This document shows, piece by piece, positions 2-18,501 of a stretch of DNA of 64,000 nucleotides. A program made the position numbers and the translations under genes. Below the pieces are notes generated by a model, which did no database searches, was not told where the DNA came from, and was given only the letters and a program-made list of their open reading frames with translations. Every line of letters begins with the position of its first letter. Within the stretch, counting starts at the first letter, position 1. The stretch comes from an uncultured bacterium (GTDB lineage: Bacteria > Abyssobacteria > SURF-5), in assembly GCA_964607485.1 (NCBI GenBank), contig CAZSKP010000001.1, positions 64,001 through 128,000 of the forward strand, given 5' to 3'.

Positions 2-619
2 GGTGTAATCAGGGACATGCTCGACCCGCAATTCGGGCTGGAATGTACGCCCGATACCATCAGGAAAGAGCTGGACTACATCGATGAAGCCGTGTTTCGC
101 GCCCGGGACATTACACAGAAACTGTTGAACTTTGTGCGGAAGACCGAACCGCGGCTGGTCCCGTGCAACATCAACCAGGTGCTGGAGGACATCATTGGCG
201 GCCTCAAAGAGCGTGAGTTGGAGGTTACCGGAATCAAAGTGGTTCGCGATCTCGACCCCGAGCTTCCCGACGTCATGCTCGACCCCGACCAGATGCGGCA
301 GGTGTTCCTGAACATCGTGAACAACGCGGGCGACGCCGTTGAGGGGCCCGGCACCATCACGCTCACTACACGGTGCAATGACAGCCACATCCGGGCCACC
401 GTCACCGATACGGGCAAGGGCATGACATCGGAACAGATGGAGAGGATATTCGACCCGTTCTTCACCACGAAAGAAGTCGGCAAAGGGACGGGCCTGGGCT
501 TGAGCATAAGCCTGAGCATCGTACAGTCGATGCACGGTGAGATAGAGGTTCAGAGCATGCCGGGGGCGGGAAGTTCGTTTACGGTAGTGCTCCCGCGATA
601 TCGAGCGGAGGAAAACTAA
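2..619 (+). CDS. Sensor histidine kinase, C-terminal HATPase part (5'-truncated by window edge)
   Basis: N box QVFLNIVNNAGDA, G1 DTGKGM, F box FDPFFTTK, G2 GTGLGL; frame is open to the window start. Confidence 0.95.
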   Translation, partial: GVIRDMLDPQFGLECTPDTIRKELDYIDEAVFRARDITQKLLNFVRKTEPRLVPCNINQVLEDIIGGLKERELEVTGIKVVRDLDPELPDVMLDPDQMRQVFLNIVNNAGDAVEGPGTITLTTRCNDSHIRATVTDTGKGMTSEQMERIFDPFFTTKEVGKGTGLGLSISLSIVQSMHGEIEVQSMPGAGSSFTVVLPRYRAEEN

Positions 620-620: not shown

Positions 621-2687
621 ATGTCGAACAGCGTTGCAACAAACCACATAGACGGCAGGGCAAGAGTGTTGCTCGTCGATGACGAGGATAAATTCAGGCA
701 GGCGATGAGACGGCAGCTCGAAGTCCGCGACTATAAGGTCTGGGACGTGAACAACGGCGAGGACGCCATCAAGATTGTCCGCCACAAGAATCCCGAGGTC
801 GTCATCCTCGACCAGCGCATGCCGAAGATGGACGGCATCCAGACCCTGCGCGAGATCAAGAAGATTCGGCCCGAGATGCAGGTGATCATGCTGACCGGCT
901 ATGGGAGCACCGAATCGGCGCGCGTGACGGGCAAGTACGACGTGTTTCATTACATGCAGAAACCGTGCGTGCTGGAAGAGCTGATCACGGTTATCGAGGC
1001 GGCCCGACAGGAACGGGTGTACGCCATGGCCCGGCACGAGATACCCGACGTCAAGCGGGGCACGCTCGGGCAGTGGCTTATCGGCGCGCACAACGCGAGG
1101 CCCGGCTTCATCATCCTGGGTTTCCTGCTGTTCGCCATCATACTCGCTGCGCCGCCGCCCAGGAAACTCGTGACGCTGCTCAGCACGGAGAAGGCCAGCG
1201 ACGCGGGCCAGAGCATTATGGGCTATGCCGAGTATCGCAAGATGAAACCCGGCCAGACGATATCCGACTATTACAGCGACAAGGAAGGCTGGACAAAGAA
1301 GGTCACGAAAGAAGACGGGACGTCCGCATCCGTTCCGCTGAGCCCGCGGCAGACTGCGTTTCGGGCGCGCGTCATGATCGGGACGCTGGTCGTCGCCGCG
1401 CTCTTTTGGGCCACGGGCGCGATGCCGGTGGGAGTGACCGCGCTCCTGGTCGGGATGTTGATGTATTTCCTCGGGGTCATGCCGCCCGACAAGGTGGCGG
1501 CCGCCTATGCGAAGGATTCGGTCGTGTTCATCTTCGGCGTGCTGGCGATTTCGGCCGCCATATCGAAAACCGGCCTCGACCGCCGCATCGGCCTGCTGCT
1601 ACTCGGCACGAGCACGTCGCTGGCCCGGCTGGCGTTCATCTTCTGCCCGCTCTTGGCGGTCTCCGCGTCGTTCCTGTCCGAGCACGCGCTGGTCGCGTTC
1701 ATCGCACCCATTTTCATTCTCGTATACAGCGGCGCCATTCGCGCGGCCAACATCACGAAGGACCGCAGCCTGGCCGTCATGATGATTCTCATGCTTTCAT
1801 TCGTGGCGAACGTGGGCGGACCGGGCTCTCCGGCCGCAGGCGGACGCAACGCGGTCATGCTCGGCATCCTCGCCGACTACGGTCTCGCGCCCACATTCGG
1901 ACGGTGGGTGATGTACGGACTGCCCTGCGTGCCGGTCATGGCGTTGGCCATCAGCTCGTACTTCTTCCTCGCGTTCCGGCGCAAAATCCAAATCAAGAAT
2001 CTTGACGTCGCCGCCGAGGTCAGGCGCGAGGCGCAGAAGATCGGCAAGATGACCCGCAACGAATATCGAACGGCCGCAGTTCTCGTGCTGCTGGTCGTGT
2101 TGTGGTCAACGGTCTCGAACCGTTTCGGCATGGGCGGACCAGTGCTCCTCTGCATCGTGCTGCTTAACATCCTCGGCATTCTTCGCTGGCGCGACATCAA
2201 CCATATTCACTGGGACGTCGTGGCGCTCTACGCGAGCGCGAGCGCGATGGGCGCCGGCCTTGCCGTCACGGGGGCCGCCCTCTGGATGGCCGACGCCTTC
2301 GTCAGCATCCTGCCCGGCTTCATGAAGAGCGGCGAGGGACTGTGCATCGCCACGAGCATATTCACCGGCGTCATCACCAATTTCATGAGCGATGGAGCCA
2401 CCGTCGCCGCCATCGGGCCGATTACCGTCCCCATGGCCGCCCTGTCTCAGACGCCGCCGCTGATGGTCGGCCTGGCCACGGCGTTCGCCTCGTCGTTCGC
2501 CTTCATGTTGATTATCGGGACTCCCAACAACGCGATCGCATACAGCATGGCCAGGGACCCGGAAACGGGCGAACAGCTCGTGACCGTCACGGACTTTCTC
2601 AAACACGGCGCGGTCGCGCTCGTGCTCTCGTTGGCCGTGCTGTGGATATGGGTGTTCTTCGGATACTGGCGATGGGTCGGCTTCTGA
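621..2687 (+). CDS. Receiver domain fused to an SLC13/DASS-family permease
   Basis: N-terminal REC (LLVDDE, ILDQRMP, LTGYG, QKP) followed by a long multi-TM region with DASS-like motifs (KTGLDRRI, IHWDVV, ASSFAFML..GTPNNAI). Confidence 0.9.
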   Translation: MSNSVATNHIDGRARVLLVDDEDKFRQAMRRQLEVRDYKVWDVNNGEDAIKIVRHKNPEVVILDQRMPKMDGIQTLREIKKIRPEMQVIMLTGYGSTESARVTGKYDVFHYMQKPCVLEELITVIEAARQERVYAMARHEIPDVKRGTLGQWLIGAHNARPGFIILGFLLFAIILAAPPPRKLVTLLSTEKASDAGQSIMGYAEYRKMKPGQTISDYYSDKEGWTKKVTKEDGTSASVPLSPRQTAFRARVMIGTLVVAALFWATGAMPVGVTALLVGMLMYFLGVMPPDKVAAAYAKDSVVFIFGVLAISAAISKTGLDRRIGLLLLGTSTSLARLAFIFCPLLAVSASFLSEHALVAFIAPIFILVYSGAIRAANITKDRSLAVMMILMLSFVANVGGPGSPAAGGRNAVMLGILADYGLAPTFGRWVMYGLPCVPVMALAISSYFFLAFRRKIQIKNLDVAAEVRREAQKIGKMTRNEYRTAAVLVLLVVLWSTVSNRFGMGGPVLLCIVLLNILGILRWRDINHIHWDVVALYASASAMGAGLAVTGAALWMADAFVSILPGFMKSGEGLCIATSIFTGVITNFMSDGATVAAIGPITVPMAALSQTPPLMVGLATAFASSFAFMLIIGTPNNAIAYSMARDPETGEQLVTVTDFLKHGAVALVLSLAVLWIWVFFGYWRWVGF

Positions 2688-2709: not shown

Positions 2710-3201
2710 ATGGCTAAAGAGAAGATCAACCTGTTGATTGTGGACGACGAGGAGCGGTTCCTCGAATCCACGAAGAAGAGGCTCGAAGTCAGGGATTTCA
2801 ACGTCATTGCCGTGAACAGGGGTGACAAGGCCATCGAGGCCGCGCGCAACCACCCCGTCGACGTTGCTCTGGTGGACCTCAAGATGCCCGGCATGAACGG
2901 AGAACAGACCCTGGAGGCGCTGAAGAAGGAGCACAAGTGGCTGGAGGTCGTCATCCTCACCGGCCACGGCTCCACCGAATCCGCCGTGGAATGCACGAAG
3001 AAGGGAGCGTACTTCTACCTGCAGAAACCCTGCGAACTCGAGCGGCTCCTCTCCGTGCTGACCGACGCCTACAAACGACGAGTCATGAACAAGATGACGA
3101 TCAAGCAGGATCGCATGGAGGAGATTCTCGGCATGGCCGACTCGGGGTCGCCGCTGGGAATCCTGCGCAGGATACGGGAACTGGACGAAGAAGGGGAATG
3201 A
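2710..3201 (+). CDS. Single-domain response regulator with ~40-aa C-terminal tail
   Basis: VDDE, LVDLKMP, LTGHG, QKP; SD GGAGGA upstream. Confidence 0.93.
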   Translation: MAKEKINLLIVDDEERFLESTKKRLEVRDFNVIAVNRGDKAIEAARNHPVDVALVDLKMPGMNGEQTLEALKKEHKWLEVVILTGHGSTESAVECTKKGAYFYLQKPCELERLLSVLTDAYKRRVMNKMTIKQDRMEEILGMADSGSPLGILRRIRELDEEGE

Positions 3202-3205
3202 CGCC

Positions 3206-4936
3206 GTGGAGGCGAGCAACTTCAAAATCACTCGGCGCATCATCCTGCGGCGAGTCCTTCTGGTGCCGTTCGTAACGATGACGCTCGTGTTCTGCACGCT
3301 GGTTTACTATTTCGCGACCGACCTCCGTTCCGCCGTCGAGGCGGAGCTGGTGCGCATCGCCGGCGCTCACCGCGACGTAATCGAACAATTTCTCCGCGAA
3401 CGGTGCCTCGACCTTCAATACGTTGGCGCCTCCTGTTCCTACGAAGAGATCGCCCGCGAGGACCGGCTTGAAGAGATTTTCGAAAACCTGCAGATGCGGT
3501 CGCCGGCGTTTTTCGACATCGGCGTCTTCGACGCGGACGGAAACCACGTCGCCTACGTCGGACCGTACGACCTTCGGGGCAAAAACTACGCGCAGGCCGA
3601 ATGGTTTCGGCAGTCCCAGACAAAGAGCCCCTACGTCTCCGACCTGTTCTACGGATACCGCAGCGTGCCCCATTTCGTCATCGCCGTACGCCGTGAGGAA
3701 GGCGGCCGCACGTGGTTCCTCCGGACGACCATCGACTGGTTCTTTTTCAATGATCTTGTCGGAAACATCCGTGTCGGAAAAACGGGCGAAGCATACCTGA
3801 TAAACCAGGAGGGTCAGTTCCAAACGCGCCGTCGCACGGGTGGCGACCTGATGGAGCCCGACCCTGACTATGCCGTTTATGAAATCGATGAGAACGATGT
3901 CTCCTACTTTACGGCGTCTGATTCGACGGGCGAGCGGCATCTGTATGCCACCGGCCGAATTCCTTCGACGGACTGGCTCCTGGTGGTTCGGCAGGAAGTC
4001 GGCGACGCCTACGCCTCGCTCATCCGCGCCGTCCTCATTGCCGTCGCCATGATCGTCGCCGGCGGAGCCGTGGCAGTCTTTATGGCTTTCATGCTCGCCT
4101 CCGGCGTCGCCAATCAGCTCACCGTGGCCGACCTGGAGAGACGCCGGATGGGCACACAGTTAATCATGGCGGGCAAGCTCGCCGAGATTGGCGAGATGAG
4201 CGCCGGAGTCGCACACGAGATGAACAACCCGCTCCAGGTAATAAAGGGGGAAGAGACGTACATCAAGGATATCTTGGACGATATGGAGACAAACGGGAGC
4301 GGAAACAATTCCGAGAATTTCCGGTTGCTTCGGGAATCTATTGACCAGATAGCGCTTCAGGTCGATAGGGGAAAGCAGATCACCGAAGGGCTGCTGGGGT
4401 TCGCGCGCAAGGCAGACACGAGGATCGAGCCAATCGAGCTGCGGTCATTGATACCCGACGTCGTCGGAATGATCGAGCGACGCGCTCAGGTGGAAAACAT
4501 CCGCATCGTTCAGGAATTCGAAGCAGACCTGCCCACGGTGCCCAGCGACCCCGTTCAGCTTCAGCAGGTATTCCTCAACCTGCTCAACAACGCGATTGAC
4601 GCGCTCAAGGAAAAGGGCGGAGGAGAGATTCGGATCACGGCGACGCAGGAGGCCGATGACCTGATGGTATCGGTTACGGACAACGGCTGCGGCATCCCGC
4701 CCGAGCACATGGAGAAGATATTCCTCCCCTTCTTCACCACGAAACCGGTGGGACAGGGCACGGGGCTGGGCTTGAGCACGTGTTACGGCATCGTGGAGCA
4801 CCTGGGTGGGCAGATCACGGTCGCGAGCGAGGTGAACGTGGGAACCGTCTTCACGATACGGCTTCCCCTGTCCGGCCCTCCCGAACAACGAGAACGCGAG
4901 CCGATGGGCCAGATGCAAGGAGGTTCGGCGAAGTGA
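3206..4936 (+). CDS. Membrane sensor histidine kinase with extracytoplasmic Cache-like domain
   Basis: TM-periplasmic-TM layout; H box AHEMNNPL; N/G1/F/G2 boxes. Confidence 0.93.
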   Translation: MEASNFKITRRIILRRVLLVPFVTMTLVFCTLVYYFATDLRSAVEAELVRIAGAHRDVIEQFLRERCLDLQYVGASCSYEEIAREDRLEEIFENLQMRSPAFFDIGVFDADGNHVAYVGPYDLRGKNYAQAEWFRQSQTKSPYVSDLFYGYRSVPHFVIAVRREEGGRTWFLRTTIDWFFFNDLVGNIRVGKTGEAYLINQEGQFQTRRRTGGDLMEPDPDYAVYEIDENDVSYFTASDSTGERHLYATGRIPSTDWLLVVRQEVGDAYASLIRAVLIAVAMIVAGGAVAVFMAFMLASGVANQLTVADLERRRMGTQLIMAGKLAEIGEMSAGVAHEMNNPLQVIKGEETYIKDILDDMETNGSGNNSENFRLLRESIDQIALQVDRGKQITEGLLGFARKADTRIEPIELRSLIPDVVGMIERRAQVENIRIVQEFEADLPTVPSDPVQLQQVFLNLLNNAIDALKEKGGGEIRITATQEADDLMVSVTDNGCGIPPEHMEKIFLPFFTTKPVGQGTGLGLSTCYGIVEHLGGQITVASEVNVGTVFTIRLPLSGPPEQREREPMGQMQGGSAK

Positions 4937-5406: not shown

Positions 5407-7140
5407 ATGGAAACCGCCGATTTCAAAGGCACCCGGATGATGATTCTCAGCAGGGTTCTGCTGGTTCCATTCGTGGCGGTCATGCTCGTGTTCGGCACGC
5501 TCGTCTATTACTTCGCCACCAATCTTCGGAGCCAGGTGGAGGAAAGACTTGCGTACGTCGCCGACGGACACCGCCAGATTATCGAACAGTTTCTGCATGA
5601 ACGATGTTCCGACCTTGAATACGCCGCGAGTTCGCACAGCTTCGAGGAACTCAGCGGTGCCCGACGCCTGGCCGAAGTCTTTGAAGCATTGCAGACGCGG
5701 ACGCAGGCGTTCTTTGACCTGGGACTCTTTGACGCTCAGGGCAACCATGTCGCCTACGTCGGGCCGTATGACCTGAAAGGCAAGAACTATGCACAGGCGG
5801 AGTGGTTTCTCCAGGTTCGGGAAAAGGGACAATACATCTCCGACGTGTTTCTCGGCTATCGCAATATTCCCCACTTCGTCATCGCGGTTCGTCGTGAAGA
5901 ATCCAGCCGCGTCTGGTACCTCCGCGCGACGATAGACACGCTTTTCTTCAACGATCTGGTTGAAAACATCCGCATTGGAAAGACGGGAGAGGCCTACCTT
6001 GTGAACCGTGGGGGAGTGTTCCAGACGCCGAGGCGTTCCGGAGGAGCGTTGATGGGGATCGACCCGGATTACGGCGTTTACCAGGTCCACGAAGGCGCCG
6101 TCGCCTCCTTTGCGGCCGATGACGACGCCGGCTCTCGACATCTCTACGCCACGTGCCGTCTCGCATCCACCGGATGGCTTCTGGTGGTGCGTCAGGAAAT
6201 CGGCGAGGCCTACGCGCCTCTCGTTCGCGCCGTGTTTCTCGCAATCGCAATAATCCTAGCGGGAGGCGTGGTGGTGGTCACGATGGGCTTCCTGCTCGCC
6301 ACCGGCGTCACGAATCAACTGAGCGCCGCCGACATGGAGAGACGCCGAATGGGAAGCCAGTTGATCATTGCGGGCAAGCTCGCCGAGGTCGGCGAGATGA
6401 GCGCCGGACTGGCGCACGAGATCAACAATCCCCTCCAGGTGATGAAATCGGAGGAGGCGCTCGCCGTAGAGATTCTGGACGAAATGAAGGCGAACGGCAA
6501 TCCCGGCCAGGCCGAAAATATCCAGATGGTCCGGGATTGCATAACCCGAATGGGCGGTCAGATTGACCGATGCAAGAGGATAACCCTGGGGCTCCTGAAG
6601 TTTGCCCGCGAATCCGAAGCGGCCATCCAGCAGATAGACCTGAAGCCATTCATGCGAGAGGTCGTCGCGATGGTGGAGCGCAGGGCCGCCGTCGAGAATA
6701 TACACCTTCTGCAGGAATTCGCCCCGGACCTGCCTCGATTTCAGAGCGACCCGGCTCAACTGCAACAGGTGTTCCTCAATCTGCTCAACAACGCCATTGA
6801 CGCGCTTGCCGACAAGAATGAAGGCGAGATACGGGTCACAGCGTCCCGTGGCGATGATGAGGTGGTCATATCGGTGGCGGACAATGGCTGCGGCATCGCC
6901 CCCGAACATATGGAAAAGATATTTCTGCCGTTCTTCACTACGAAACCGGTCGGGCGGGGAACGGGGCTGGGGCTGAGCACGTGTTACGGCATCGTGACGC
7001 GCCTCGGCGGAAGGATTACCGTGAGCAGCGAACCGAATGCGGGGTCGGTTTTCACCCTGCACTTTCCGCTCAGCGATCCTTCCGAGCAGTCCAAAGCGTG
7101 GCTGCCCGCCCGCGAACGAGGACAAGGAGGAGCAACATGA
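5407..7140 (+). CDS. Membrane sensor histidine kinase (paralog of 3206-4936)
   Basis: H box AHEINNPL; shared segments with the upstream kinase such as NHVAYVGPYDLxGKNYAQAEWF. Confidence 0.93.
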   Translation: METADFKGTRMMILSRVLLVPFVAVMLVFGTLVYYFATNLRSQVEERLAYVADGHRQIIEQFLHERCSDLEYAASSHSFEELSGARRLAEVFEALQTRTQAFFDLGLFDAQGNHVAYVGPYDLKGKNYAQAEWFLQVREKGQYISDVFLGYRNIPHFVIAVRREESSRVWYLRATIDTLFFNDLVENIRIGKTGEAYLVNRGGVFQTPRRSGGALMGIDPDYGVYQVHEGAVASFAADDDAGSRHLYATCRLASTGWLLVVRQEIGEAYAPLVRAVFLAIAIILAGGVVVVTMGFLLATGVTNQLSAADMERRRMGSQLIIAGKLAEVGEMSAGLAHEINNPLQVMKSEEALAVEILDEMKANGNPGQAENIQMVRDCITRMGGQIDRCKRITLGLLKFARESEAAIQQIDLKPFMREVVAMVERRAAVENIHLLQEFAPDLPRFQSDPAQLQQVFLNLLNNAIDALADKNEGEIRVTASRGDDEVVISVADNGCGIAPEHMEKIFLPFFTTKPVGRGTGLGLSTCYGIVTRLGGRITVSSEPNAGSVFTLHFPLSDPSEQSKAWLPARERGQGGAT

Positions 7141-7589: not shown

Positions 7590-7623
7590 CCCTGGTCCGT
7601 GTGGCGCCATCGGAGTGTAACCA

Positions 7624-9471
7624 ATGACCACAGAGAAGCGAAAAGCGACAGGTTACGATAAGTACATCGATTGGAAAATCTTCGTCATTCCCGTGCTGCT
7701 GCTGTTTGCGATCATGTACGCGCCGGCCACCGACGGCATGCGTGATGTGGGAACCGAGTACGGCGTCGGTCCGCAAAAGGTCATCGACTATCTTTCCGAG
7801 CAGATGTTCAAGAGACCGACCGCCGACCTCGACCAGTGGCAGTTGTTGACATGTCGGATCATCGAACAGTCGATGCGCGGCGGCGCGATGGGCCGCGCCA
7901 GGTTCCTGAAACGCGACGAGAAGTGGTGCAGGAGCAACGGCATTCCCGTGGACTCGACGAACCTCGCGCGCGCCAAGGAGTTTGTCGGCGGCATGGATGA
8001 CGACTCGTACCGGGAGCTTCTGATGTCGGCGGCGAAGCTGCGCACCGAGGAGCTGCATTATGAAGGACTCTCCGGGGCCGACCGCAAGCTCGCCGACAAA
8101 GCCACGTGGAAGCTGAAGGTAGCGCTGGCCGTGACGGTGTTCACGGTATTCTGCTTCGTGAGCGGATGCATACCGCTGCCCGCCGTGGCGTTCTGCATCG
8201 GGTTGGCGTTTACGTTCACCGGCGTCGTCTCACGCACCGAGGTGGCGGCGTTCTACTGGAGCGACGCGGTCTGGTTCATCATGGGCAGCCTGATGTTCGC
8301 CTCCGCGTTCGTCAAGACGGGGGTGGACCGCCGCATATGCCTCATGCTGTTCAGCAAGCTGGCCCGGCCGAGCGTCGCGGCCATCACGCTCGTAATGATT
8401 ACCGTCATAGCTCCCGCCGCCTCGTTCATCTCCGACCACGCGCTTGCGGCCATCTTTCTCCCAATCGCCATCATCCTGCATCGCGGCAGTCAGGTGGAGG
8501 GCAACCCTACCGACTTGGAGCTCGGGAAAATGCTCGTGATCACCGTGGCGATGGCATGCAACATCGGCGGCTTCGGCGCGCCGAGCGGCGGGGCTCGCAA
8601 TGTGATCATGATGACCTACCTCGAGGACATGTTCGGGATGGACATCGGGTATTTCACGTGGATGACGTATGCCATGCCGTTCGTGCTCGTCATGATGCCG
8701 CTCACGTGGCTCGCCATCCAATGGCGGTTCAAGCCTGCCACGCGCGACCTCTCCACCGCGATGAGATTCCTCAAAGACGACATCACTCGAATGGGAAGGT
8801 GGAGCCGGCAGCAGGTCGTCACGCTGATTATCTTCGCGGTAATGGTGTGGTTCTGGTTCACCGAGAAATCATTCTTCGATATCGGCATCTATCCCGTCCG
8901 CCTCGGCATCGGCGTGGTTGCCGTGGCCGGGGGAGTCGCATACATCCTGGCTGGTGTGGTCAACTGGCGCGACTATCAAGAAAAGGTTGACTGGGGCGTC
9001 GTATGGCTTTATGCGGGGGCTATCATTTTCGGCAAGGTCCTCGACGAAACGGGCGCCGCCTACTTCATCGCCCGAACGGCCGTGAACGGGCTCGCTCACT
9101 TCGGCATCGCCGCCGGCATTCCGCTCATCGCGATGGCGAGCGTGCTAACCGGATGCATCACGCAGATCATGGCCGACGGACCGGCAGCGGCCGCCGTCGG
9201 GCCAATTACGCTGAATATGGCGGGCATCGTTCATCCGGGCACGGTCATGCTTCCGTTCATGACCATGGCCACCGCCGCGGCTTCGAGCTTCGCCTACTGC
9301 CTGGTCATCGGCACTCCGCCCAATGCGATCGTGTACGCAAGCGGATACCTCGAGCCGAAGGATTACCTCCGGGTCGGTATCCCGGTGTGGTTTCTGTCGA
9401 ACATCGTGCTCTTCCTGTTGGTTGGAGTGTATTGGATGGCCCGGGGATTCGGCGGACTGCCGGGTTTTTAG
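7624..9471 (+). CDS. SLC13/DASS-family permease with a large soluble loop after the first TM
   Basis: KTGVDRRI, VDWGVV, ASSFAYCL..GTPPNAIVYASG, multiple TMs. Confidence 0.9.
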   Translation: MTTEKRKATGYDKYIDWKIFVIPVLLLFAIMYAPATDGMRDVGTEYGVGPQKVIDYLSEQMFKRPTADLDQWQLLTCRIIEQSMRGGAMGRARFLKRDEKWCRSNGIPVDSTNLARAKEFVGGMDDDSYRELLMSAAKLRTEELHYEGLSGADRKLADKATWKLKVALAVTVFTVFCFVSGCIPLPAVAFCIGLAFTFTGVVSRTEVAAFYWSDAVWFIMGSLMFASAFVKTGVDRRICLMLFSKLARPSVAAITLVMITVIAPAASFISDHALAAIFLPIAIILHRGSQVEGNPTDLELGKMLVITVAMACNIGGFGAPSGGARNVIMMTYLEDMFGMDIGYFTWMTYAMPFVLVMMPLTWLAIQWRFKPATRDLSTAMRFLKDDITRMGRWSRQQVVTLIIFAVMVWFWFTEKSFFDIGIYPVRLGIGVVAVAGGVAYILAGVVNWRDYQEKVDWGVVWLYAGAIIFGKVLDETGAAYFIARTAVNGLAHFGIAAGIPLIAMASVLTGCITQIMADGPAAAAVGPITLNMAGIVHPGTVMLPFMTMATAAASSFAYCLVIGTPPNAIVYASGYLEPKDYLRVGIPVWFLSNIVLFLLVGVYWMARGFGGLPGF

Positions 9472-9488
9472 AAAGGGAGGAACCGTTT

Positions 9489-10427
9489 GTGGATAAGGCC
9501 GATGCCATAAGGGTCCTGATCGTTGACGACGAAGAGCGCTTTCGCGCCAACACCGCCGCCATCCTCAATCGGCGCGGCTTTGTAGCGACGGCCGTCGGCA
9601 GCGGGATCGAAGCAATACAGGAGATCAAGAAGCAGCCGTTCGACGTCGTCATCCTCGACGTGAAGATGCCGGGCATGGACGGACACGAGGCGCTGCGCGA
9701 GATCAAGAAAATCCGGCCGGAGCTCGAGGTGATCATGCTCACGGGCCACGGCACGCTCACCTCGGCGCTTGTCAGTCTGCGCGGCGGCGTGTTCGACTAT
9801 CTCGCCAAGCCGTGCGACATCGATGTCCTTGCCGCGAAGGTCCGCAGCGCTTATGCGAAGGAAAAAGGATTGGCGGAAGTGGAGCGTCGCGCGAGAGACA
9901 TCATGGTGCCGCTCTCCTCGTTCAGCGCCGTCCACGACGACCAGACCGTGGCCGGGGCGATTCAGGTGATTCTTCGTTCGTTCAAGACGATCATGAGCAC
10001 GGCGACAGTGCACGAGACGGTGCACCGTTCCACGCTCATACTCGACAGGAACGACAACGTCATCGGCGTGCTCAGTTTTGCCGACCTCCTGCAAGGCCTG
10101 CAGCCCGTCTATATGCGGCTCCTCAAGGAGCGGCCGCCGCTGGCCGACTCTTTGCACCTGGAACCGTTCAGCTATTCAGGAATGTTTACGATTATGGTGC
10201 GCGACCTGGCCAACAAGCGGGTCCGCGACCTGATGTCAGAGGCGCCTCCCGATATCGACGCCGACGCGAACCTGATGGAGGCTGCAAGCCGGCTGTTGGT
10301 GCTGAGAGTGCCGCGGATGCTGGTCATCGAGGGCGGGAAGACAATCGGCGTTCTTCGGGAACAGGACCTCTTCTTCGAGATAGCGAGGATCGTAGGGGAG
10401 CGTGAGGGGGAAGAGAGGGACTCATAG
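9489..10427 (+). CDS. Response regulator with C-terminal CBS domain pair
   Basis: SD GGGAGG then GTG; REC motifs; CBS motifs ARDIMVP, IGVLSFADLL, VRDLMSE, IGVLREQDLF. Confidence 0.9.
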   Translation: MDKADAIRVLIVDDEERFRANTAAILNRRGFVATAVGSGIEAIQEIKKQPFDVVILDVKMPGMDGHEALREIKKIRPELEVIMLTGHGTLTSALVSLRGGVFDYLAKPCDIDVLAAKVRSAYAKEKGLAEVERRARDIMVPLSSFSAVHDDQTVAGAIQVILRSFKTIMSTATVHETVHRSTLILDRNDNVIGVLSFADLLQGLQPVYMRLLKERPPLADSLHLEPFSYSGMFTIMVRDLANKRVRDLMSEAPPDIDADANLMEAASRLLVLRVPRMLVIEGGKTIGVLREQDLFFEIARIVGEREGEERDS

Positions 10428-10498
10428 AAACCACGAACATGAATGGAAGTTCCGTCGACGCCCGGGGCGCCGAAGATTTCGAAAGGAGTGAGAACGCC

Positions 10499-10936
10499 AT
10501 GAGCAAGCAAAAGAACATCCGCGTACTGATCGTGGACGACGAGGAGCGCTTCCGCACGACGGCAACGGCCACGCTCGCAAAGCGCGGTTTCGATGTCAAG
10601 GCGGTGGAGGGCGGAGCCGAGGCGCTCGAAGAGATACGGAAGGATGCGGTCGATGTCGTGGTGCTCGACGTCAAGATGCCCGGCATGGATGGAAACGAGG
10701 CCCTCCGAGAGATGAAGATACTCCGGCCGGACCTCGAGGTGATCATGCTCACCGGTCACGGCACCGTGGACTCGGCCCTCGAAGGATGGCGTGACGAGGC
10801 GTTCGCGTACCTCACAAAGCCGTATGACATGGAATTGCTCGCGGAGAAGATTCGCGACGCATACGGCAAGAAGAAGGGACTGGACGGGACAGTGTGGTAC
10901 TCCGTATGGTCTAAGGACCAGCCTCCCGGACATTGA
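10499..10936 (+). CDS. Single-domain response regulator (CBS-less paralog of flanking REC-CBS genes)
   Basis: SD AGGAG; VDDE, VLDVKMP, LTGHG, TKP. Confidence 0.92.
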   Translation: MSKQKNIRVLIVDDEERFRTTATATLAKRGFDVKAVEGGAEALEEIRKDAVDVVVLDVKMPGMDGNEALREMKILRPDLEVIMLTGHGTVDSALEGWRDEAFAYLTKPYDMELLAEKIRDAYGKKKGLDGTVWYSVWSKDQPPGH

Positions 10937-10990
10937 CCACGCGTCGCCGGCCCGGAAGAGCGGCGGATTGTCCTTATTGGAGCATCGGAC

Positions 10991-11932
10991 ATGGAAAAGG
11001 ACGAAACAGTTCACGTTCTCGTCGTAGACGATGAGGACCGTTTCCGGATCACCACTACGGTCAGCCTCAAGAGGCGCGGGTTTGCCGTCAGAGCCGTGGC
11101 TGGCGGCGACGAAGCCATCGAGGAAGTGAAGAAGGGCGACGTGGATGTCGTAATTCTCGACGTGAAGATGCCCGGCATTGACGGGCACGAGACCCTGCGG
11201 GAGATACGGCGCCTCAGGCCGGGTATTCAGGTGATAATGCTGACCGGATATGGGTCGGTCGGTTCGGCGCTGGAGGGCTGGCACGAGGGAGTGTTTGCGT
11301 ATCTGACGAAGCCGTCGAGCATCGATTTCCTTGCAGAGAGAATCAGGGAGGCGTACGCGAAGAAGAAGGGCGCCCCATGTGAGGAGCGCCGAGTGAAGGA
11401 CATCATGGAGCCGCTGTCGGCGTTCATCAGCACGGTTCGCCGGGACCAGTCGGTAGCCGAAGCCATTCAGGAGATGCACCGTTTCTTTGCACACACCATT
11501 GCGGCCACGAAACGCAAAGAAGCCCTGCTCCGTTCTCTGTTAGTCACGGATGAGCGGAGCAGGGTCATCGGTGTGATCGGTCTCACCGACCTCCTGCGCG
11601 GACTGCAGCCGTCCTGCATGCGGTTGCCCGACGACCGGCCGGCCGCGGCGGATACGACGTACCTCGACCCGTCGAGCTGCCTGGGAAACTTTGCCACGAT
11701 GGTCCGCGGCCTGGCCACGAAGAAGGTCGGGGAACTGATGTCGGAGAGGCCCGCTACCATCGACGCCAATGCCGGTCTCATAGAAGCCACGAACCGGCTC
11801 TTATCGCTCAGGGTCCATAGTCTGTTGGTGATGGATGACGGCGAGGCGGTGGGAGTGGTCAGGGACAAGGACCTGTTTCTGGAAATGGCGAACATCGTGA
11901 GAGAGCGTCCTGCGGAGGCCGGGGCCTCATGA
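10991..11932 (+). CDS. Response regulator with C-terminal CBS domain pair
   Basis: REC motifs; VKDIME, IGVIGLTDLL, VGELMSE, VGVVRDKDLF. Confidence 0.9.
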   Translation: MEKDETVHVLVVDDEDRFRITTTVSLKRRGFAVRAVAGGDEAIEEVKKGDVDVVILDVKMPGIDGHETLREIRRLRPGIQVIMLTGYGSVGSALEGWHEGVFAYLTKPSSIDFLAERIREAYAKKKGAPCEERRVKDIMEPLSAFISTVRRDQSVAEAIQEMHRFFAHTIAATKRKEALLRSLLVTDERSRVIGVIGLTDLLRGLQPSCMRLPDDRPAAADTTYLDPSSCLGNFATMVRGLATKKVGELMSERPATIDANAGLIEATNRLLSLRVHSLLVMDDGEAVGVVRDKDLFLEMANIVRERPAEAGAS

Positions 11933-12017
11933 TGAACCACGGACGCCTCAGGCTCGACCGGCATGGCGTGTCCGACCGTTTCTTGATCGGCCTTTGGCCA
12001 AGAGAGAGGAGCCAACC

Positions 12018-12707
12018 ATGAAAGCGCCGGCGTTCAACAACAAGACCTACCAGGTGGATGCGGGTGGGTTTCTGACGGACCCCGAGCAATGGGACGAGGA
12101 TTTTGCGGCTAGGCTCGCGCCGGAATTAGGAATTCCCCACGGACTGACGGAAGAGCACTGGAAAGTCATCCGCTTCATCCGGGGGACGTATGAGCGAGAA
12201 GGGAGATGCCCGCTGATATTCACGACCTGCAGGGCCAACGACCTTCACCTCAAGGACTTGCAGAAGCTCTTTCCCGCCGGGTACTTGCGAGGGGCCTGCA
12301 AGCTCGCGGGCATCACGTATAAGGAGGCGTGCTTCGCTCCGGGCCTCGTTTCGATAGGAGACCGGACCGCCGCTCCACGAGCCGCCGAGGAGGGCCGCCG
12401 CGCCGTTCCTCCCGTGGCCGAGAAGACCTATACGATAGACACGCAGGGATTCCTCGTGAATCCCGACGACTGGGACCAGCGGTTTGCGCTGCTCAAAGCG
12501 TACGAGATGGGGATTTTGGAGACATTCTCGAACAGGCATTGGGAAGTCATCTACTTCATTCGCGACAGCTATGACGAGAACGGTGTCGTCCCGACGGTGT
12601 ACGAAACCTGCGAGGCAAACAACCTGGACATCGAGAGTCTCGAAAAACTCTTCCCTCACGGGTATCACCGCGGCGCGATCAAGATGGCCGGTCTGAGGGT
12701 CCGATAG
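12018..12707 (+). CDS. Tandem (two-domain) DsrC/TusE-family sulfur-relay-like protein
   Basis: Two copies of DxxGFLxxPxxW...HWxVIxFIRxxY...LxKLFPxGYxRGAxKxAG; SD GAGGAG. Confidence 0.88.
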   Translation: MKAPAFNNKTYQVDAGGFLTDPEQWDEDFAARLAPELGIPHGLTEEHWKVIRFIRGTYEREGRCPLIFTTCRANDLHLKDLQKLFPAGYLRGACKLAGITYKEACFAPGLVSIGDRTAAPRAAEEGRRAVPPVAEKTYTIDTQGFLVNPDDWDQRFALLKAYEMGILETFSNRHWEVIYFIRDSYDENGVVPTVYETCEANNLDIESLEKLFPHGYHRGAIKMAGLRVR

Positions 12708-12785
12708 ATGATGCCGTTCCGGGTTCGCGGAACAGAGGGCAGCTTGTCTTCGGAGACATGGAGACAGGAAGGAGGAAGAGTGCAA

Positions 12786-13184
12786 ATGAACGCCCGCAAA
12801 TCCGTGCTTTTCGTCGATGACAACAAGGAGTTTCGAAAAGCGATGAGAAAAGTGTTCGAGAGGTCAGGCTACGCATTCACAGAGGCCTGCGACGGGCTGG
12901 AGGCGCTTGCTCTCCTTTCGCAGAACAGGTTCGACCTCATCCTTTCCGACCTCAGGATGCCTAACCTGGACGGAATGGGACTGATGGAGGAGCTCAGCAG
13001 GCAGGAGCTGGACGTGCCCGTTATCTTCATCACGGCATACGGAGACGTCGAGTCGTACTTGGAGCTGATGAACATGGGCGCTTACGACTACCTTAACAAG
13101 CCCTTCGGCACGGAGGAGATTCTCAGCGTCGTCGGAAGCGCACTCGATACACACAGAACTCCGCTCCACAGCCCGAGCCGCTGA
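12786..13184 (+). CDS. Single-domain response regulator
   Basis: FVDDN, LSDLRMP, ITAYG, NKP. Confidence 0.92.
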   Translation: MNARKSVLFVDDNKEFRKAMRKVFERSGYAFTEACDGLEALALLSQNRFDLILSDLRMPNLDGMGLMEELSRQELDVPVIFITAYGDVESYLELMNMGAYDYLNKPFGTEEILSVVGSALDTHRTPLHSPSR

Positions 13185-13217
13185 CCCCCACACGGGCCGG
13201 ACAGCGGGCCCATTTCC

Positions 13218-14543
13218 TCAAAGGTCTTTGATGCGGGCGTTCTTCGAGGAGTTTGCCAGAACACCCCGGAAGCTGTCGAGGGATGAAGATATTTTCTCCA
13301 CAGCTTCAGATTCAACAAGAGGGACAGCGGCGACGCCGCTGTTTTCAAGTCGGTCCACAACTCCCTGGAGCGTCAGGTTGTCAATGTCGAGTGCCGGCTG
13401 GTAGGAAGGCACCTTTCCTTCATCACCGCAGATTTCAGAGAGAATTCCCGCCTCAATCAGTTCAAAGACGGTCTGGTTTACCAGTCTTATGGGGGTCTTC
13501 AGCTCTTTCGAGATGTCGTCGGCCGTAGGAGATGGAAGCCCCTCGCGGAACTTCCTGACACACAAATGCGCGACGGCGAGCGTGACCAATCGCTTGAACG
13601 CCGGGCTGATTTTCATACAATCCTGCTCGAACTCGTACGTCCCCACGTTCTGGTGAGCGAAGGAGACCTCGGCCCCGTAGAGCAGTATCAACCAGCTCAA
13701 CTGCAGCCAAATCAAGAAGAGGGGCAATGCGGCGAAGCTTCCGTAGATGGCGTTGTAACGATTAATCCCGATCTGAAACGTGATGTAGGCCCACTGCACA
13801 ATCTGGTAGATAGTACCCGCCAGAATCCCGCCCAGCAAAGCCGAGCGCGCGTTCACTTTTCCGTTGGGCAAGAAGAGATATACGAAAGCAAAAAGTCCCC
13901 ACAGGAGACCGAAAGGAAGTACTTTGAGCAGAATCAGGATGGGCTCGGCAATGAATGCAAGGTAGCTGTGAGTTAACAGAATGTTCTTAACCTGGCTGCT
14001 CACTGCGACAGTCATGCCTCCCGCCATTATGAACAAAATCGGAGCGATAAGCATGAATGAAAGATAATCGCTGAACTTGCGTGTCCAGCTTCGCTGCTTT
14101 TTGATGCCCCAAATTTCGTTGAACGACCGCTCCATGTTTCCCAGCACTTTGATGACCGTCCAGAAAAGGAATACCACGCCGATGCCGGCTATCAGGCCTC
14201 CCTTTGTGTTGTCGAGCATATTGCGCGCAAAAATGATAGCCCGGGAAACTACTTCCTCATGTCCGTGAAACTGCTCTCTGACCCGCTCTTCGAGGACATG
14301 ATCGAACCCGAAGCCTTTTGCAATTCCGAAGGCCATGGCCAGGATCGGGACGATGGAAAGCAGAGTGTAGAAGGTCAACGCGGAGGCCCGCAGCGTGCAC
14401 TTGTCTTTGTCGAACCCTTTGACGGATAAGGTGATCACTCGCAGCAGCTTGATCCATAGCGACCTTCGCCGCGGTTGCTCGTCCAAACGGATACGCCACA
14501 GATCCTCACGGAGAAACTTGTGTAATTCACGCGGCTTCACCAT
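13218..14543 (-). CDS. YihY/BrkB-family inner membrane protein with C-terminal wHTH-like extension
   Basis: ASALTFYTLLSIVP, FNEIWG, YNAIYGSFAALPLFLIWL..LxGAE motifs. Confidence 0.92.
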   Translation of the reverse strand: MVKPRELHKFLREDLWRIRLDEQPRRRSLWIKLLRVITLSVKGFDKDKCTLRASALTFYTLLSIVPILAMAFGIAKGFGFDHVLEERVREQFHGHEEVVSRAIIFARNMLDNTKGGLIAGIGVVFLFWTVIKVLGNMERSFNEIWGIKKQRSWTRKFSDYLSFMLIAPILFIMAGGMTVAVSSQVKNILLTHSYLAFIAEPILILLKVLPFGLLWGLFAFVYLFLPNGKVNARSALLGGILAGTIYQIVQWAYITFQIGINRYNAIYGSFAALPLFLIWLQLSWLILLYGAEVSFAHQNVGTYEFEQDCMKISPAFKRLVTLAVAHLCVRKFREGLPSPTADDISKELKTPIRLVNQTVFELIEAGILSEICGDEGKVPSYQPALDIDNLTLQGVVDRLENSGVAAVPLVESEAVEKISSSLDSFRGVLANSSKNARIKDL

Positions 14544-14647
14544 CTCTTCACCTCCGCACAGAAGGGACGTTCACGCGCGGTTCACCTGCCCTTCTCGCGA
14601 GCGTAGTCTCTTAGTTCTTGTCCCCAGGCCTACTGCTCCCCAGAAAT

Positions 14648-17008
14648 TTACTGCCGCGCCATGGCTTGTTTCATTTCGGCGCTTGAATCCTGTGTCGCCT
14701 CGCCGTCAACGTCCACGGTAACGCTGTGAATCGTTCCCGTGAACGCGAACGGCGCTGTGAGTTCGGGAGTTATCGGGGCGCCCGGCAAAGCGCCTACGCT
14801 GACTCCGCCGGATAGTCCCATCGAAAACGGAGTGGTGAACGGCATATCGAGCTGTCCGGCCGGTTTGCCATCGATGTAGAGCGTACCGCGTCCCGGCGCG
14901 CCTTTTCCTCCGGCCAAATCCGGCTCTCCCGTCGGTTCGAACACGTATCGCAACTGGTGGCGGCCTTCGGGAACGCCGTCGTTTGACTCGACATGATAGA
15001 TAACTCTGGCGACGTAGTTATGGGCATAGTGAAGTTTTCGGTTCTTCACAAAGACCACGTAGCCTCCTTCATTGTCGCCATGACACAGCAGCACGCCTTC
15101 GGCGCCGCCCTTGGGAATTTCGACGTCGGCGGTGATGCTGTGCGGCCGATTGAGCACCCTCACGCCGGCGAAGGTCGGCACCGGCTGTGTGTCGGGGTAG
15201 TAAACATACTTCTTGCGTTCAGGAGCGACCAGCGGACGCTCTACCAGCACCCGTATTATGCCCCGGCTGTCGATGGGCAGCACGTTGTACTTGCCCGCCT
15301 CGACGTACCACTGTGCGATCATCTCGGTGAGCTTGCCGGGTTCCTTGTCGGCCAGGTTATGGTTCTCCGCGAAGTCCTCTGTAACGTGATAGAGTTCCCA
15401 ATGCTTTGCGTCGAGCTCCGTCAGCGTCTCGGCATACATTGGCGCGCCGAAAGGCATGCCCGCCTCCGTAAACGATGTGCCCGGCCACGGGCAGACCGCG
15501 CGCCAGCCGTCGTGGTAAATCGAGCGATGGCCCAACATCTCGAAGTACTGCGTGTGATGCCGGGAGGAAGCGTCTGCATCGTCAAACGTATGCGCCAAGC
15601 TCACGCCTTCCATGGGCGACTGCGTGACACCTTTGATAACCGTCGGCGGCTCGACGCCCAACGCTTGCAATACCGTCGGCGTCATGTCGGTCGCATGGGC
15701 ATACTGCGTGCGGATTTCTCCCTTCGCTTTGATGCCTTTCGGCCAATGCACAATGAACGGGTCGCTGATGCCGCCGCGATAGGTCTCTCGCTTCCAGCGG
15801 CGGAACGGCGTGTTGCCCGCCCATGTCCATCCCCAGGAGTAGTGGTTGAAGACCTCCGGCCCGCCCAGTTTATCGATAAGCTTGAGGTTTTCCTCGAGGC
15901 TCTCGGGCACATTGTTGAAAAAGAGATTTTCGTTCACCGAGCCGGTGGGGCCGCCCTCGGCGCTTGCGCCGTTGTCTGAGAGCACCATGATGATGGTGTT
16001 CTCAAATTCGCCGATGCTCTTGAGGAAATCGAGGAGGCGGCCGATGTGGTGGTCGGTGTGCGTCAGGAATCCGGCGTACACTTCCATCATGCGCGCGTAC
16101 AATTTCTTTTCTTCGGCCGAGCATTCATCCCACGGTTTCACGTCCGGGTCGTGGCGGGAAAGCTCTGTTTCCTTGGGAATGATGCCCAGCTCTTTCTGTC
16201 TGCAGAACACCTTCTCGCGGTATGCTTCCCATCCGTCGTCGAACTTGCCCTTGTATTTGTCGGCCCATTCCTTCGGAACATGATGGGGCGCATGCGTCGC
16301 GCCGGGGCAGAAGTACATGAAGAATGGCTTGTCGGGGGTCACCTGCTTGGCGTCGGCGATGAAGCTGATGGCCCTGTCGGCGAGGTCCTCCGTCAAATGA
16401 TAGCCTTCTTCGGGTTTCTTAGGTGGGCTGACGTGGTGGTTATCGTACGTCAGGTCGGGATAGTACTGATGTGTGTCTGCGCCAAGGAAACCGTAATAGC
16501 GCTCGAATCCGCGCCCCAAAGGCCATCGATCAAACGGTCCCGCGGCGGAGAGCTGATCGGGCGGCGTCAGGTGCCACTTGCCGACGGCAAACGTGTTGTA
16601 GCCGTGCTGCAAGAGAATTTCCGAGAGAAATCCATTCTCGAACGGGATGTTTCCGTTGGAGCCCGGATATCCCATCGACCCTTCGGTGATGCAAGCCATC
16701 GCATTCGAGTGGTGGTTGTGACCGGTCAGAACGCAGGAGCGCGTGGGCGAGCACAGCGCCGTGGTGTGCATATTGTTGTAGCGCAGGCCGTTGGCAGCGA
16801 GGCGGTCGAGATTCGGCGTCTCAATCGGGGCGCCATAGCAACCGATTTGGCCGAAGCCGGTGTCGTCAAGGATGATGAACAACACGTTAGGCGCGCCATC
16901 CTTCGCGCGCGGCGGCATCGGCCATGCGGGTGTCGAGACCTCAAACGTACGCCCCATCACTCCGGGGAATGCGGTTCCAGGCTTGTACTCTCTCAGACTC
17001 ATCATCAT
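14648..17008 (-). CDS. Arylsulfatase (Cys-type, ~780-aa long form), no signal peptide evident
   Basis: PNVLFIILDDTG, LCSPTRSCVLTG (CxPxR), GKWHL, SDNGAS, WELY. Confidence 0.95.
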   Translation of the reverse strand: MMMSLREYKPGTAFPGVMGRTFEVSTPAWPMPPRAKDGAPNVLFIILDDTGFGQIGCYGAPIETPNLDRLAANGLRYNNMHTTALCSPTRSCVLTGHNHHSNAMACITEGSMGYPGSNGNIPFENGFLSEILLQHGYNTFAVGKWHLTPPDQLSAAGPFDRWPLGRGFERYYGFLGADTHQYYPDLTYDNHHVSPPKKPEEGYHLTEDLADRAISFIADAKQVTPDKPFFMYFCPGATHAPHHVPKEWADKYKGKFDDGWEAYREKVFCRQKELGIIPKETELSRHDPDVKPWDECSAEEKKLYARMMEVYAGFLTHTDHHIGRLLDFLKSIGEFENTIIMVLSDNGASAEGGPTGSVNENLFFNNVPESLEENLKLIDKLGGPEVFNHYSWGWTWAGNTPFRRWKRETYRGGISDPFIVHWPKGIKAKGEIRTQYAHATDMTPTVLQALGVEPPTVIKGVTQSPMEGVSLAHTFDDADASSRHHTQYFEMLGHRSIYHDGWRAVCPWPGTSFTEAGMPFGAPMYAETLTELDAKHWELYHVTEDFAENHNLADKEPGKLTEMIAQWYVEAGKYNVLPIDSRGIIRVLVERPLVAPERKKYVYYPDTQPVPTFAGVRVLNRPHSITADVEIPKGGAEGVLLCHGDNEGGYVVFVKNRKLHYAHNYVARVIYHVESNDGVPEGRHQLRYVFEPTGEPDLAGGKGAPGRGTLYIDGKPAGQLDMPFTTPFSMGLSGGVSVGALPGAPITPELTAPFAFTGTIHSVTVDVDGEATQDSSAEMKQAMARQ

Positions 17009-17363: not shown

Positions 17364-17448
17364 TATGTCGCCACAAATTATAAGGAAATGTCTTTCACCT
17401 GGTGTTGCCAATCGCGAACGTGGGGCGCCGCCCCAAGAAATGGTCAGT

Positions 17449-18411: not shown

Positions 18412-18431
18412 GAGCGACATTGCAATAGGAG

Positions 18432-18464
18432 AAAAGGCAGTGGGGTTGCCTGCTGCCTTTTTTT
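18432..18464 (+). terminator. Stem-loop plus U tract between binding protein and permease (partial terminator or mRNA stabiliser)
   Basis: AAAAGGCAGTGGG-GTTG-CCTGCTGCCTTTTTTT. Confidence 0.6.
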
Positions 18465-18501
18465 GTTTACCTCACGGGTTGTCTGAGCAGGGGTTGAGCG
18501 G

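Follow-up and report, generated by a model that had tools for sequence, protein, structure and literature searches.

A 64,000-nucleotide stretch of the genome of an uncultured bacterium (Abyssobacteria, SURF-5; GenBank assembly GCA_964607485.1, contig CAZSKP010000001.1, positions 64,001 to 128,000; the whole stretch is hereafter called the window) encodes a protein that carries two DsrC domains in a single chain. Our analysis revealed that this protein belongs to a family of such proteins, which we name tDsrC (tandem DsrC) and define here by its two DsrC domains. The family itself is our main finding, and no description of it was found in the open-access literature searched. Dissimilatory sulfur metabolism has DsrC as its central sulfur carrier, and relatives of DsrC are routinely annotated 'TusE/DsrC'. 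For tDsrC we tentatively prefer, at rather less than an even chance, the view that it is a cysteine-based sulfane-sulfur or redox sensor or adaptor of two-component signaling and not a co-substrate of DsrAB. The observations behind this view are the domain architecture, the conservation of the cysteines, gene fusions, gene neighborhoods and the co-occurrence with dsrA.

Two DsrC domains in one chain

The tDsrC gene of the window (12018..12707, + strand) encodes 229 amino acids (aa) plus the stop codon. Its open reading frame (ORF) begins with an ATG preceded by AGGAG, and a Met is aligned at this start in 115 of the 120 best homologs (the window protein itself, a 100% self-hit, is P0001). Pfam model PF04358 (DsrC) matched the protein in two stretches (E 5e-45, 152.8 bits), and TIGR03342 scored 113.1 bits on the whole protein against a cut-off of 53.5, which makes it a member of the TusE/DsrC/DsvC superfamily; scanned singly, domain 1 scored 63.9 bits and domain 2 scored 53.7 bits. 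Domain 1 (residues 1-102, 12018..12323, +; Pfam stretch 6-105) retains the equivalent of DsrC CysB. It is followed by an inter-domain linker (residues 103-132, 12324..12413, +) that varies in length and sequence among the aligned homologs, and by domain 2 (residues 133-229, 12414..12704, +), the arm of which is truncated after AGLRVR and lacks the arm Cys.

Cysteine codons were located on the + strand for Cys64 (12207..12209), with Val at the equivalent site of domain 2, for Cys71 (12228..12230; the 'TC' of domain 1, T70-C71), Cys94 (12297..12299), Cys105 (12330..12332) and Cys198 (12609..12611; the 'TC' of domain 2, T197-C198). Cys94 and Cys105, both encoded by TGC and with 10 residues in between, fall exactly on CysB and CysA, respectively, when aligned by HMMER with two DsrCs of solved structure, those of Pyrobaculum (1ji8) and Archaeoglobus (1sau); BLASTP against the genome's own canonical DsrC placed them identically. 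The arm of domain 1 reads AGITYKEAC where canonical DsrC has AGLPKPTGC. Cys105 opens a 30-residue Ala/Pro/Arg-rich linker, with 124 residues C-terminal to it, and domain 2 terminates in GAIKMAGLRVR with no Cys in its arm. An earlier note on this DNA, made by a model from the letters alone, had described the protein in just these terms, and the description holds throughout: two DsrC-like domains in one ORF, the CysB-X10-CysA spacing at 12297 and 12330, a second Cys at the start of the linker and not at a free C-terminus, no PKPT-type arm, a domain 2 ending without Cys, and a TC in both domains.

AlphaFold2, run on a 141-sequence alignment, gave a mean predicted local distance difference test (pLDDT) of 84 and a predicted template modeling score (pTM) of 0.77, with pLDDT about 87-98 across residues 11-100 and values <50 solely in residues 103-132. 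Both domains are thus predicted to pack in a defined manner, with a disordered linker and with Cys105 in the flexible part. Foldseek against the PDB returned 8 chains at E <= 0.001, all of them single-domain DsrC/TusE (target-normalized TM-score, TMt, 0.74-0.91), and a sequence search of the PDB matched 7 sequences, with E values down to 2e-17 against solved DsrCs; no tandem DsrC structure was among the PDB matches of either search. Domains 1 and 2 are 48% identical to each other, compared with 40-41% for each of them against the genome's canonical DsrC, which indicates an internal duplication within the tDsrC lineage.

Conserved cysteines in comparison with DsrC, TusE and RspA

Homologs were collected by a word-index search of proteins of 125-401 aa, in which 1214 of 1664 candidates reached E <= 0.001, and residues were counted in the best 120 homologs and in 84 genes at 72 genome loci. 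The best 120 are almost all tandem proteins of 217-232 aa, and the 119 others are 50-70% identical to the window protein. Cys94 and Cys198 are each invariant (120/120 and 84/84), Cys64 is present in 116/120 and 83/84, and Cys71 in 117/120 and 76/84. Members of the family share two DsrC domains in about 217-232 aa, together with Cys64, Cys71, Cys94 and Cys198, as well as the signatures FP(A/T)GYLRGACKLAGITY in domain 1 and FP(D/H)GYHRGAVK(I/L)AGLRVR at the C-terminus; the window protein has all of these features.

Position 105 is occupied by Tyr in 83, Phe in 12 and Cys in 8 of the best 120 homologs, and by Tyr in 60, Phe in 10 and Cys in 2 of the 84 genes; Tyr (TAY) and Cys (TGY) are separated by a single transition. 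Cys105 is carried by an Abyssobacteria-related clade (P0001, P0002, P0005, P0006, P0008 and P0013), of which the members P0004 and P0007 have Trp, by P0051/P0062 and by one Chloroflexi genome, and a genome of the same family as the window genome (G004) has Tyr. Any Cys in the arm/linker stretch was found in 12/120 sequences, 8 of those at exact position 105, and this recurrence leaves room for a local role. On these alignments, the Cys-X10-Cys is a lineage-specific Tyr-to-Cys variant at the CysA-homologous position and not a family motif, and Cys105 at most adds a resolving thiol within the Abyssobacteria-related clade. The earlier note had based its claim of a sensor on the Cys-X10-Cys pair, and this basis falls away with the rarity of Cys105; the alignment of tandem homologs that it had suggested for both cysteines found Cys94 invariant and the linker Cys not conserved, the latter being one half of what the note had named as refuting it.

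Each tDsrC domain has the same fold as DsrC of Archaeoglobus fulgidus, Desulfovibrio vulgaris, Pyrobaculum aerophilum and Allochromatium vinosum; CysB is common to both, and tDsrC occurs mostly in genomes with dsrA. In contrast to single-domain DsrC, tDsrC has two domains per chain, an ITYKEG(Y) arm where DsrC has LPKPTGC, GY(L/H)RG instead of GPxKG before CysB, no free C-terminal CysA, an armless domain 2, and a conserved extra cysteine in Cys64. According to passages of Stockdreher et al. 2012 (PMC3397948), CysA, the penultimate Cys, shows strict conservation across all DsrC sequences, CysB is confined to cases with DsrAB, and persulfide and sulfonate attach to CysA exclusively, with CysB dispensable for sulfur binding; the 'two DsrC' of these passages refers to two DsrC per DsrEFH complex and not to a tandem architecture. 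Passages of Barbosa et al. 2024 (PMC10861901) describe a trisulfide that joins both DsrC cysteines, with CysA more accessible than CysB. As far as the sequences tell, tDsrC is a reversal of the published DsrC/TusE cysteine rule, with CysB invariant and CysA mostly absent, so that the DsrAB trisulfide cycle as described could not be run by tDsrC. Of the features of a canonical DsrC, Cys94 supplies the CysB at the base of the arm, whereas a penultimate CysA on a free flexible C-terminus is absent, and neither AGITYKEAC in domain 1 nor AGLRVR in domain 2 matches AGLPKPTG(not N)CA, the arm motif by which DiSCo calls DsrC in the section cited (PMC8477390).

Four DsrC-domain matches were found in the window genome (assembly 97.5% complete, 93 contigs), two of them being the domains of the tDsrC ORF. 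The genome's canonical two-Cys DsrC is encoded on contig C34, where canonical dsrC is followed by dsrT-like, dsrM, dsrK, a 148-aa ORF, dsrO and dsrP (the whole group at C34:2000-8400), so that canonical DsrC and tDsrC coexist in this genome, as they do in the dsr cluster of genome G090. No dsrA or dsrB above the curated cut-off was found in the window genome, the best matches being 28.3 bits (vs 392.85) and 33.7 bits (vs 341.5); the DsrAB that accompanies a canonical DsrC in the same genome was thus not seen, although absence from a 97.5% complete assembly is no proof.

TusE, of the E. coli tRNA 2-thiouridine sulfur relay, belongs to the same PF04358/TIGR03342 superfamily as tDsrC, and its relay starts with IscS, in the same way that some tDsrC relatives are fused or adjacent to cysteine desulfurases. 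However, TusE keeps CysA without CysB (passages of PMC3397948) and tDsrC does the opposite, and the TusE equivalog model NF008562 scored 71.9 bits on tDsrC against a cut-off of 191.

It is very improbable, and by the sequence evidence already contradicted, that the window protein is an ordinary DsrC or TusE, that is, a DsrAB co-substrate forming a Cys94/Cys105 trisulfide or a relay protein of tRNA 2-thiouridine synthesis. The Cys94-X10-Cys105 spacing equals CysB-X10-CysA, and relatives are annotated (JGI) 'tRNA 2-thiouridine synthesizing protein E', but Cys105 is internal and non-conserved, the PKPTG arm is missing, the TusE model stays far below its cut-off, and the genome encodes a canonical two-Cys DsrC with dsrTMKJOP elsewhere, with no dsrA or dsrB above cut-off. 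The same points support the statement of the earlier note that the protein is not a DsrAB co-substrate; the genome check that it had proposed turned up the canonical dsrC on C34 and did not find dsrAB.

DsrC homologs without either arm cysteine, named RspA, were reportedly proposed by Venceslau and colleagues in 2014 to be regulatory. RspA is named among the DsrC homologs in the cited section of PMC8477390. The RspA type resembles tDsrC as a DsrC fold suspected of a regulatory, non-catalytic role, but it is Cys-less, whereas in tDsrC the CysB-equivalent is invariant and three further cysteines are conserved; tDsrC also differs by its tandem form and by its kinase, Rrf2, CBS and desulfurase fusions. 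An RspA-like protein is encoded in the window genome by a Cys-less single-domain DsrC-like copy of 116 aa (C77:465-815), with Trp at the CysB position, no CysA and an extended C-terminus.

Distribution, dsrA co-occurrence and fusions of the family

The tDsrC family comprises 1214 clusters at 90% identity, and a pattern scan across GTDB, with each species represented by a single genome, gave 337 loci. The 80 best of these belong to Zixibacteria, NC10/Methylomirabilota, Abyssobacteria, Acidobacteriota, Ignavibacteriota, Thermodesulfobacteriota, Binatia, Chloroflexi and others, and the family spans at least nine phyla. Metagenome contigs gave 443 further loci; 80 were kept, and the analysis used the 31 of them that are full-length tandem loci. 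The only locus of at least 60% identity on these contigs was L094 (67%), which is 1.7 kb long. Locus ORFs were called by a simple script, and neighborhood counts were made without a matched background. The 72-locus counts, the 84-gene residue table and the tree leave out L010, L046, L053, L059, L072, L079, L081 and L085, which the 111-locus count includes.

Genes for dsrA above the curated cut-off were found in 41/50 and 12/14, i.e., 53/64, tDsrC-carrying genomes; two further genomes have partial matches and one has a split match. Among 151 evenly drawn Acidobacteriota genomes, tDsrC is present in 4 and dsrA in 22, and all four tDsrC genomes have dsrA; without the centre genome the comparison is 3/3 vs 21/150, with a hypergeometric probability, calculated by hand and with relatives that are not independent, of about 0.002. 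The idea that the family is independent of Dsr was rejected on these counts. The tDsrC family belongs to the sphere of dissimilatory sulfur and hydrogen metabolism. The window genome's own taxonomic family is an exception, as three genomes with tDsrC (the window genome, G004 and SURF_17) had no dsrA found and two with dsrA (G005, G007) are without a tandem gene. The dsr cluster of G090 starts with an Rrf2 gene and a desulfurase-tDsrC fusion, after which come a PsrBC-like gene, a molybdopterin oxidoreductase, dsrA, dsrB, a DsrL-like gene, canonical dsrC and a DsrM-like gene.

Fusions were sought among proteins of >401 aa, where 11 of 1816 candidates reached E <= 1e-10, and in the homolog set. 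Two proteins (P0275, P0276) are fusions of a six-transmembrane (six-TM) HisKA-HATPase kinase with tDsrC, in which the kinase part is homologous to the GAF kinase encoded after tDsrC in SURF_17 (35% for the core, 25% for the membrane part). Rrf2-tDsrC fusions (P0128, P0137) keep the Rrf2 Cys cluster, P0097 is a CBS-tDsrC fusion, and four proteins (P0277-P0280) join a cysteine desulfurase to tDsrC. In P0281, a single domain-1-like DsrC domain is fused to ETF-alpha. Four proteins have four DsrC domains, and three- and five-domain forms also exist.

In immediate same-strand neighbors (within 400 bp, 111 loci), we counted hydrogenase or Hyp genes at 18 loci, REC (receiver) genes at 6, kinases at 5, cysteine desulfurases at 5 (immediately upstream), DASS transporters at 4 (directly downstream) and Rrf2 at 2; Rrf2 stands directly upstream of tDsrC in L066, L067 and G090. 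Within five genes at the 72 loci, hydrogenase or maturation genes are found at 20, REC or kinase genes at 16 and both at 6. Several gene orders recur: MvhD-[NiFe] small-large-HycI followed by two or three tDsrC genes (L012, L019, L051; Zixibacteria among them), HypD-HypE-tDsrC, and dCache kinase-REC-tDsrC-(DASS or 84-aa ORF)-REC-CBS-group-3b-like hydrogenase genes (L035, L041, L043, L058). The order REC-tDsrC-kinase or REC-tDsrC-REC was found in several phyla. In L012, L019 and L051, a 628-aa protein with beta-helix and ferredoxin domains precedes the MvhD-hydrogenase cluster.

These data bear on the possibility that tDsrC has a purely metabolic role, as a sulfur carrier or a thiol/disulfide redox partner, and none in signaling, being a second 'bacterial heterodisulfide' that would be loaded by cysteine desulfurase or oxidized and then reduced by group 3b/3c-like [NiFe] hydrogenases, [FeFe] hydrogenases or Hdr/DsrMK-type enzymes. 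We regard this as a real possibility, if a doubtful one. Hydrogenase and Hyp genes are the commonest immediate neighbors, the MvhD-hydrogenase-HycI clusters run straight into two or three tDsrC genes, the four desulfurase fusions would supply the sulfur, a desulfurase-tDsrC fusion lies inside the G090 dsr cluster, the ETF-alpha fusion and the dsrA counts are in keeping with such a role, and arrays of two to five domains or genes suit a stoichiometric one. A role as redox hub of Hdr-type complexes has been suggested for DsrC itself (in the part of PMC5947623 cited). On the other side, the kinase, Rrf2 and CBS fusions are unexpected for a pure carrier, most members lack CysA, which serves DsrC and TusE as carrier thiol, and the window genome, G004 and SURF_17 have tDsrC despite dsrA not being found in them. 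Near tDsrC in the window there are no hydrogenase, desulfurase or Hdr genes, and its same-strand neighbors are all two-component or transporter genes. Family-wide, the carrier reading is nearly as good as that of a sensor or adaptor; it fits the window less well.

The DsrC domain also contains a helix-turn-helix-like motif, and DNA binding of Allochromatium vinosum DsrC has been reported. Two such motifs could make tDsrC a pseudo-dimeric transcription factor serving as the output of response regulators that have none of their own, which we consider improbable. A LexA_DNA_bind match on domain 2 of the window protein is weak (E 0.0029, 17.8 bits) and lies under the Pfam cut-off of 23.7; the same model gave 26.3 bits on P0009 and 22.2 on P0137, is precomputed by Pfam on several homologs, and is echoed by low-probability Foldseek LexA matches. 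Against this, the protein is acidic, with an isoelectric point (pI) of 5.7, and of 4.9 with a net charge of -6 for domain 2 (family median 6.3, 118 sequences), and fusion to the DNA-binding domain of Rrf2 would be redundant.

A possible sensor or adaptor of two-component signaling

Tandem genes were found in 2/9 genomes of the window genome's own family, both beside a receiver and a kinase: the order is hydA-REC-tDsrC-tDsrC-GAF kinase-hydG in SURF_17 (Abyssobacteria, L006) and hydA-REC-tDsrC-GAF kinase in G004. The reading frame of the G004 gene (L190 10460-10540, C6) shifts within the linker, at eight consecutive G, which is either an assembly error or a real split into two single-domain ORFs. 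The window genome has the corresponding [FeFe]-hydrogenase operon 26 kb upstream on the same contig (C1:45600-53500, minus strand), with nuoE-like and nuoF/gltD-like genes, hydA, a 135-aa receiver, a six-TM GAF kinase and hydG/E/F-type maturases, and only 28 bp where the tDsrC genes would stand. The receiver of this hydA locus is 78% conserved among the window genome, SURF_17 and G004 and about 30% identical to the window receivers. A quick tree places the window tDsrC, on a long branch, as sister of the second SURF_17 copy (SH-aLRT 94), which suggests that the gene moved between two two-component clusters and is still beside receivers. Along its entire length, the REC-CBS upstream of tDsrC in the window (10991-11932) shares 33-36% identity with that of L041, L043, L058 and L035, and L041 has a 616-aa DASS gene downstream of tDsrC; with REC-CBS and DASS genes in common, the window gene set is thus a rearranged form of a conserved module.

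Based on these gene orders and on the fusions, we propose that conserved thiols, Cys94 foremost, would take up sulfane sulfur as a persulfide or switch between thiol and disulfide, and that the surrounding two-component proteins may read this change, tDsrC being their sensor or adaptor module. Candidate readers in the window are the upstream REC-CBS protein, the downstream receiver-only regulator and the dCache kinases, and in the closest relatives the receiver and six-TM GAF kinase of the [FeFe]-hydrogenase operon. In this way, tDsrC could couple the sulfur or redox state of the cell to kinase or receiver activity. The sensor/adaptor reading is favored because it accounts for the thiols, the sulfur donors and the signal transducers with the fewest assumptions. 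The earlier note had called the protein a redox or persulfide sensor feeding the phosphorelay, and this is borne out in part. The link to signaling gained support from the kinase, Rrf2 and CBS fusions and the recurring REC-tDsrC orders, and the persulfide part from the four desulfurase fusions and the five loci with a desulfurase immediately upstream; that tDsrC would feed a phosphorelay is, however, as yet an inference drawn from gene order and fusions.

Several observations weigh against a sensor or adaptor. In canonical DsrC, the acceptor is CysA, and CysB is dispensable and less accessible (passages of PMC3397948 and PMC10861901), so reactivity of Cys94 cannot be taken for granted. Two-component genes abound in general, and REC or kinase genes at 16/72 loci make a signaling link for a subset only; 39/72 loci have no hydrogenase, two-component or sigma-54 activator genes within five genes. 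Hydrogenase and Hyp genes are the commonest neighbors (18/111) and dsrAB is the strongest genome-wide correlate, to which a metabolic carrier fits at least equally. In the kinase fusions, tDsrC lies C-terminal to the catalytic core, which is not the usual position of a sensor. Finally, no paper describing a tandem DsrC was found in the open-access literature, supplements not being covered by the search. A family-wide enrichment beside two-component genes was dropped as a claim, as 16/72 loci are not clearly above chance given the abundance of these genes; the case for signaling is made from specific conserved gene orders and fusions alone.

A more specific version would make tDsrC the missing sensory input of two-component systems that tune H2 and sulfur metabolism, with Cys105 re-acquired in the Abyssobacteria lineage, in which dsrAB was not found, as an internal-linker dithiol/trisulfide sensing switch; taken as a whole, this is unlikely. 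The CysB-type thiol would be persulfidated or redox-cycled, e.g., by the neighboring hydrogenase or by sulfane sulfur, and its state would gate the six-TM or dCache kinase and the output-less receivers. The H2-sensing HoxBC-HoxJ-HoxA and HupUV-HupT-HupR systems are signaling add-ons of hydrogenase operons, and SurR of Pyrococcus is an S0-responsive redox switch. tDsrC resembles the Hox/Hup sensors in being small and encoded with a kinase and an output-less receiver in or near hydrogenase operons. The analogy to these and to SurR is functional only, as tDsrC is a non-homologous cysteine protein of DsrC fold and no regulatory hydrogenase is involved.

Should tDsrC prove to be a sulfane-sulfur or redox sensor, bacterial signaling would gain a new input module, and there would be a handle on the coordination of H2 and sulfur metabolism in uncultured sulfite/sulfate reducers (Zixibacteria, Acidobacteriota, NC10-related, Ignavibacteria); as a carrier, tDsrC would be the second redox hub of the DsrC kind. 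In both cases, calling DsrC by a domain match alone would miscount tDsrC genes.

The signaling cluster of the window and its surroundings

The + strand carries every gene from before position 17 up to 13184. According to Pfam, the cluster starts with the C-terminal part of a dCache histidine kinase that begins upstream of the window (17..619), followed by a 688-aa protein in which a receiver domain is fused N-terminally to a DASS (Na_sulph_symp/CitMHS) transporter (621..2687), a receiver-only response regulator (2710..3201), and two dCache histidine kinases (3206..4936 and 5407..7140), the latter of the same type as the kinase two genes upstream of tDsrC in L041, L043 and L058. A DASS-family (Na_sulph_symp/CitMHS) transporter (7624..9471), a REC-CBS response regulator with a GTG start read from the sequence (9489..10427) and a receiver-only response regulator (10439..10936) come next. 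tDsrC is flanked by a REC-CBS response regulator without DNA-binding output 85 nt upstream (10991..11932) and by a receiver-only response regulator 78 nt downstream (12786..13184). No DNA-binding output domain was found by Pfam in the six receiver proteins of the window cluster. The fusion of a receiver to DASS (621-2687) suggests direct phospho-control of the transporter.

Given these output-less receivers, tDsrC might instead be a redox-independent protein-protein adaptor that bridges them to their targets, with cysteines that are structural or bind a metal between the domains. The confidently predicted packing of the two domains (pTM 0.77) and the spread of four conserved cysteines across both of them agree with this. 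It would, however, leave the desulfurase fusions and the dsrA co-occurrence unexplained, and the invariance of the CysB-equivalent in a family of cysteine-based chemistry points to reactivity; we give such an adaptor only a small chance. A complex prediction of REC-CBS with tDsrC (score 0.00, mark 0.32, controls not folded) weighs neither way.

A scan of 7000-14700 found one promoter-like site, which is below the shuffled level, and eleven terminator-like sites compared with 6.4 +/- 2.8 in shuffles; no terminator-like site lies between the REC-CBS, tDsrC and REC genes, in a scan that was uninformative overall. [NiFe]-hydrogenase was not found in the window genome by tblastn with subunits from related loci.

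Together with the 14 kb upstream, the region 17-13184 has three dCache kinases, seven receiver proteins (three of them REC-CBS) and two DASS transporters interleaved, and DNA-binding output is likewise absent from these seven receiver proteins. The signaling cluster is preceded by genes for acetyl-CoA synthetase, an MFS transporter, ADP-forming acyl-CoA synthetase and an acetyl-CoA transferase/GNAT gene. On C34, downstream of the dsrMKJOP genes and beside a HAMP kinase, a receiver is fused to a glycine-cleavage H-protein-like domain (C34:11130-11909). At the other end of the cluster, a BrkB/YihY-family membrane protein (13218-14543, -) and a 786-aa sulfatase (14648-17008, -) converge on it, and a TAXI-type TRAP transporter (17365-20223) lies beyond the sulfatase.

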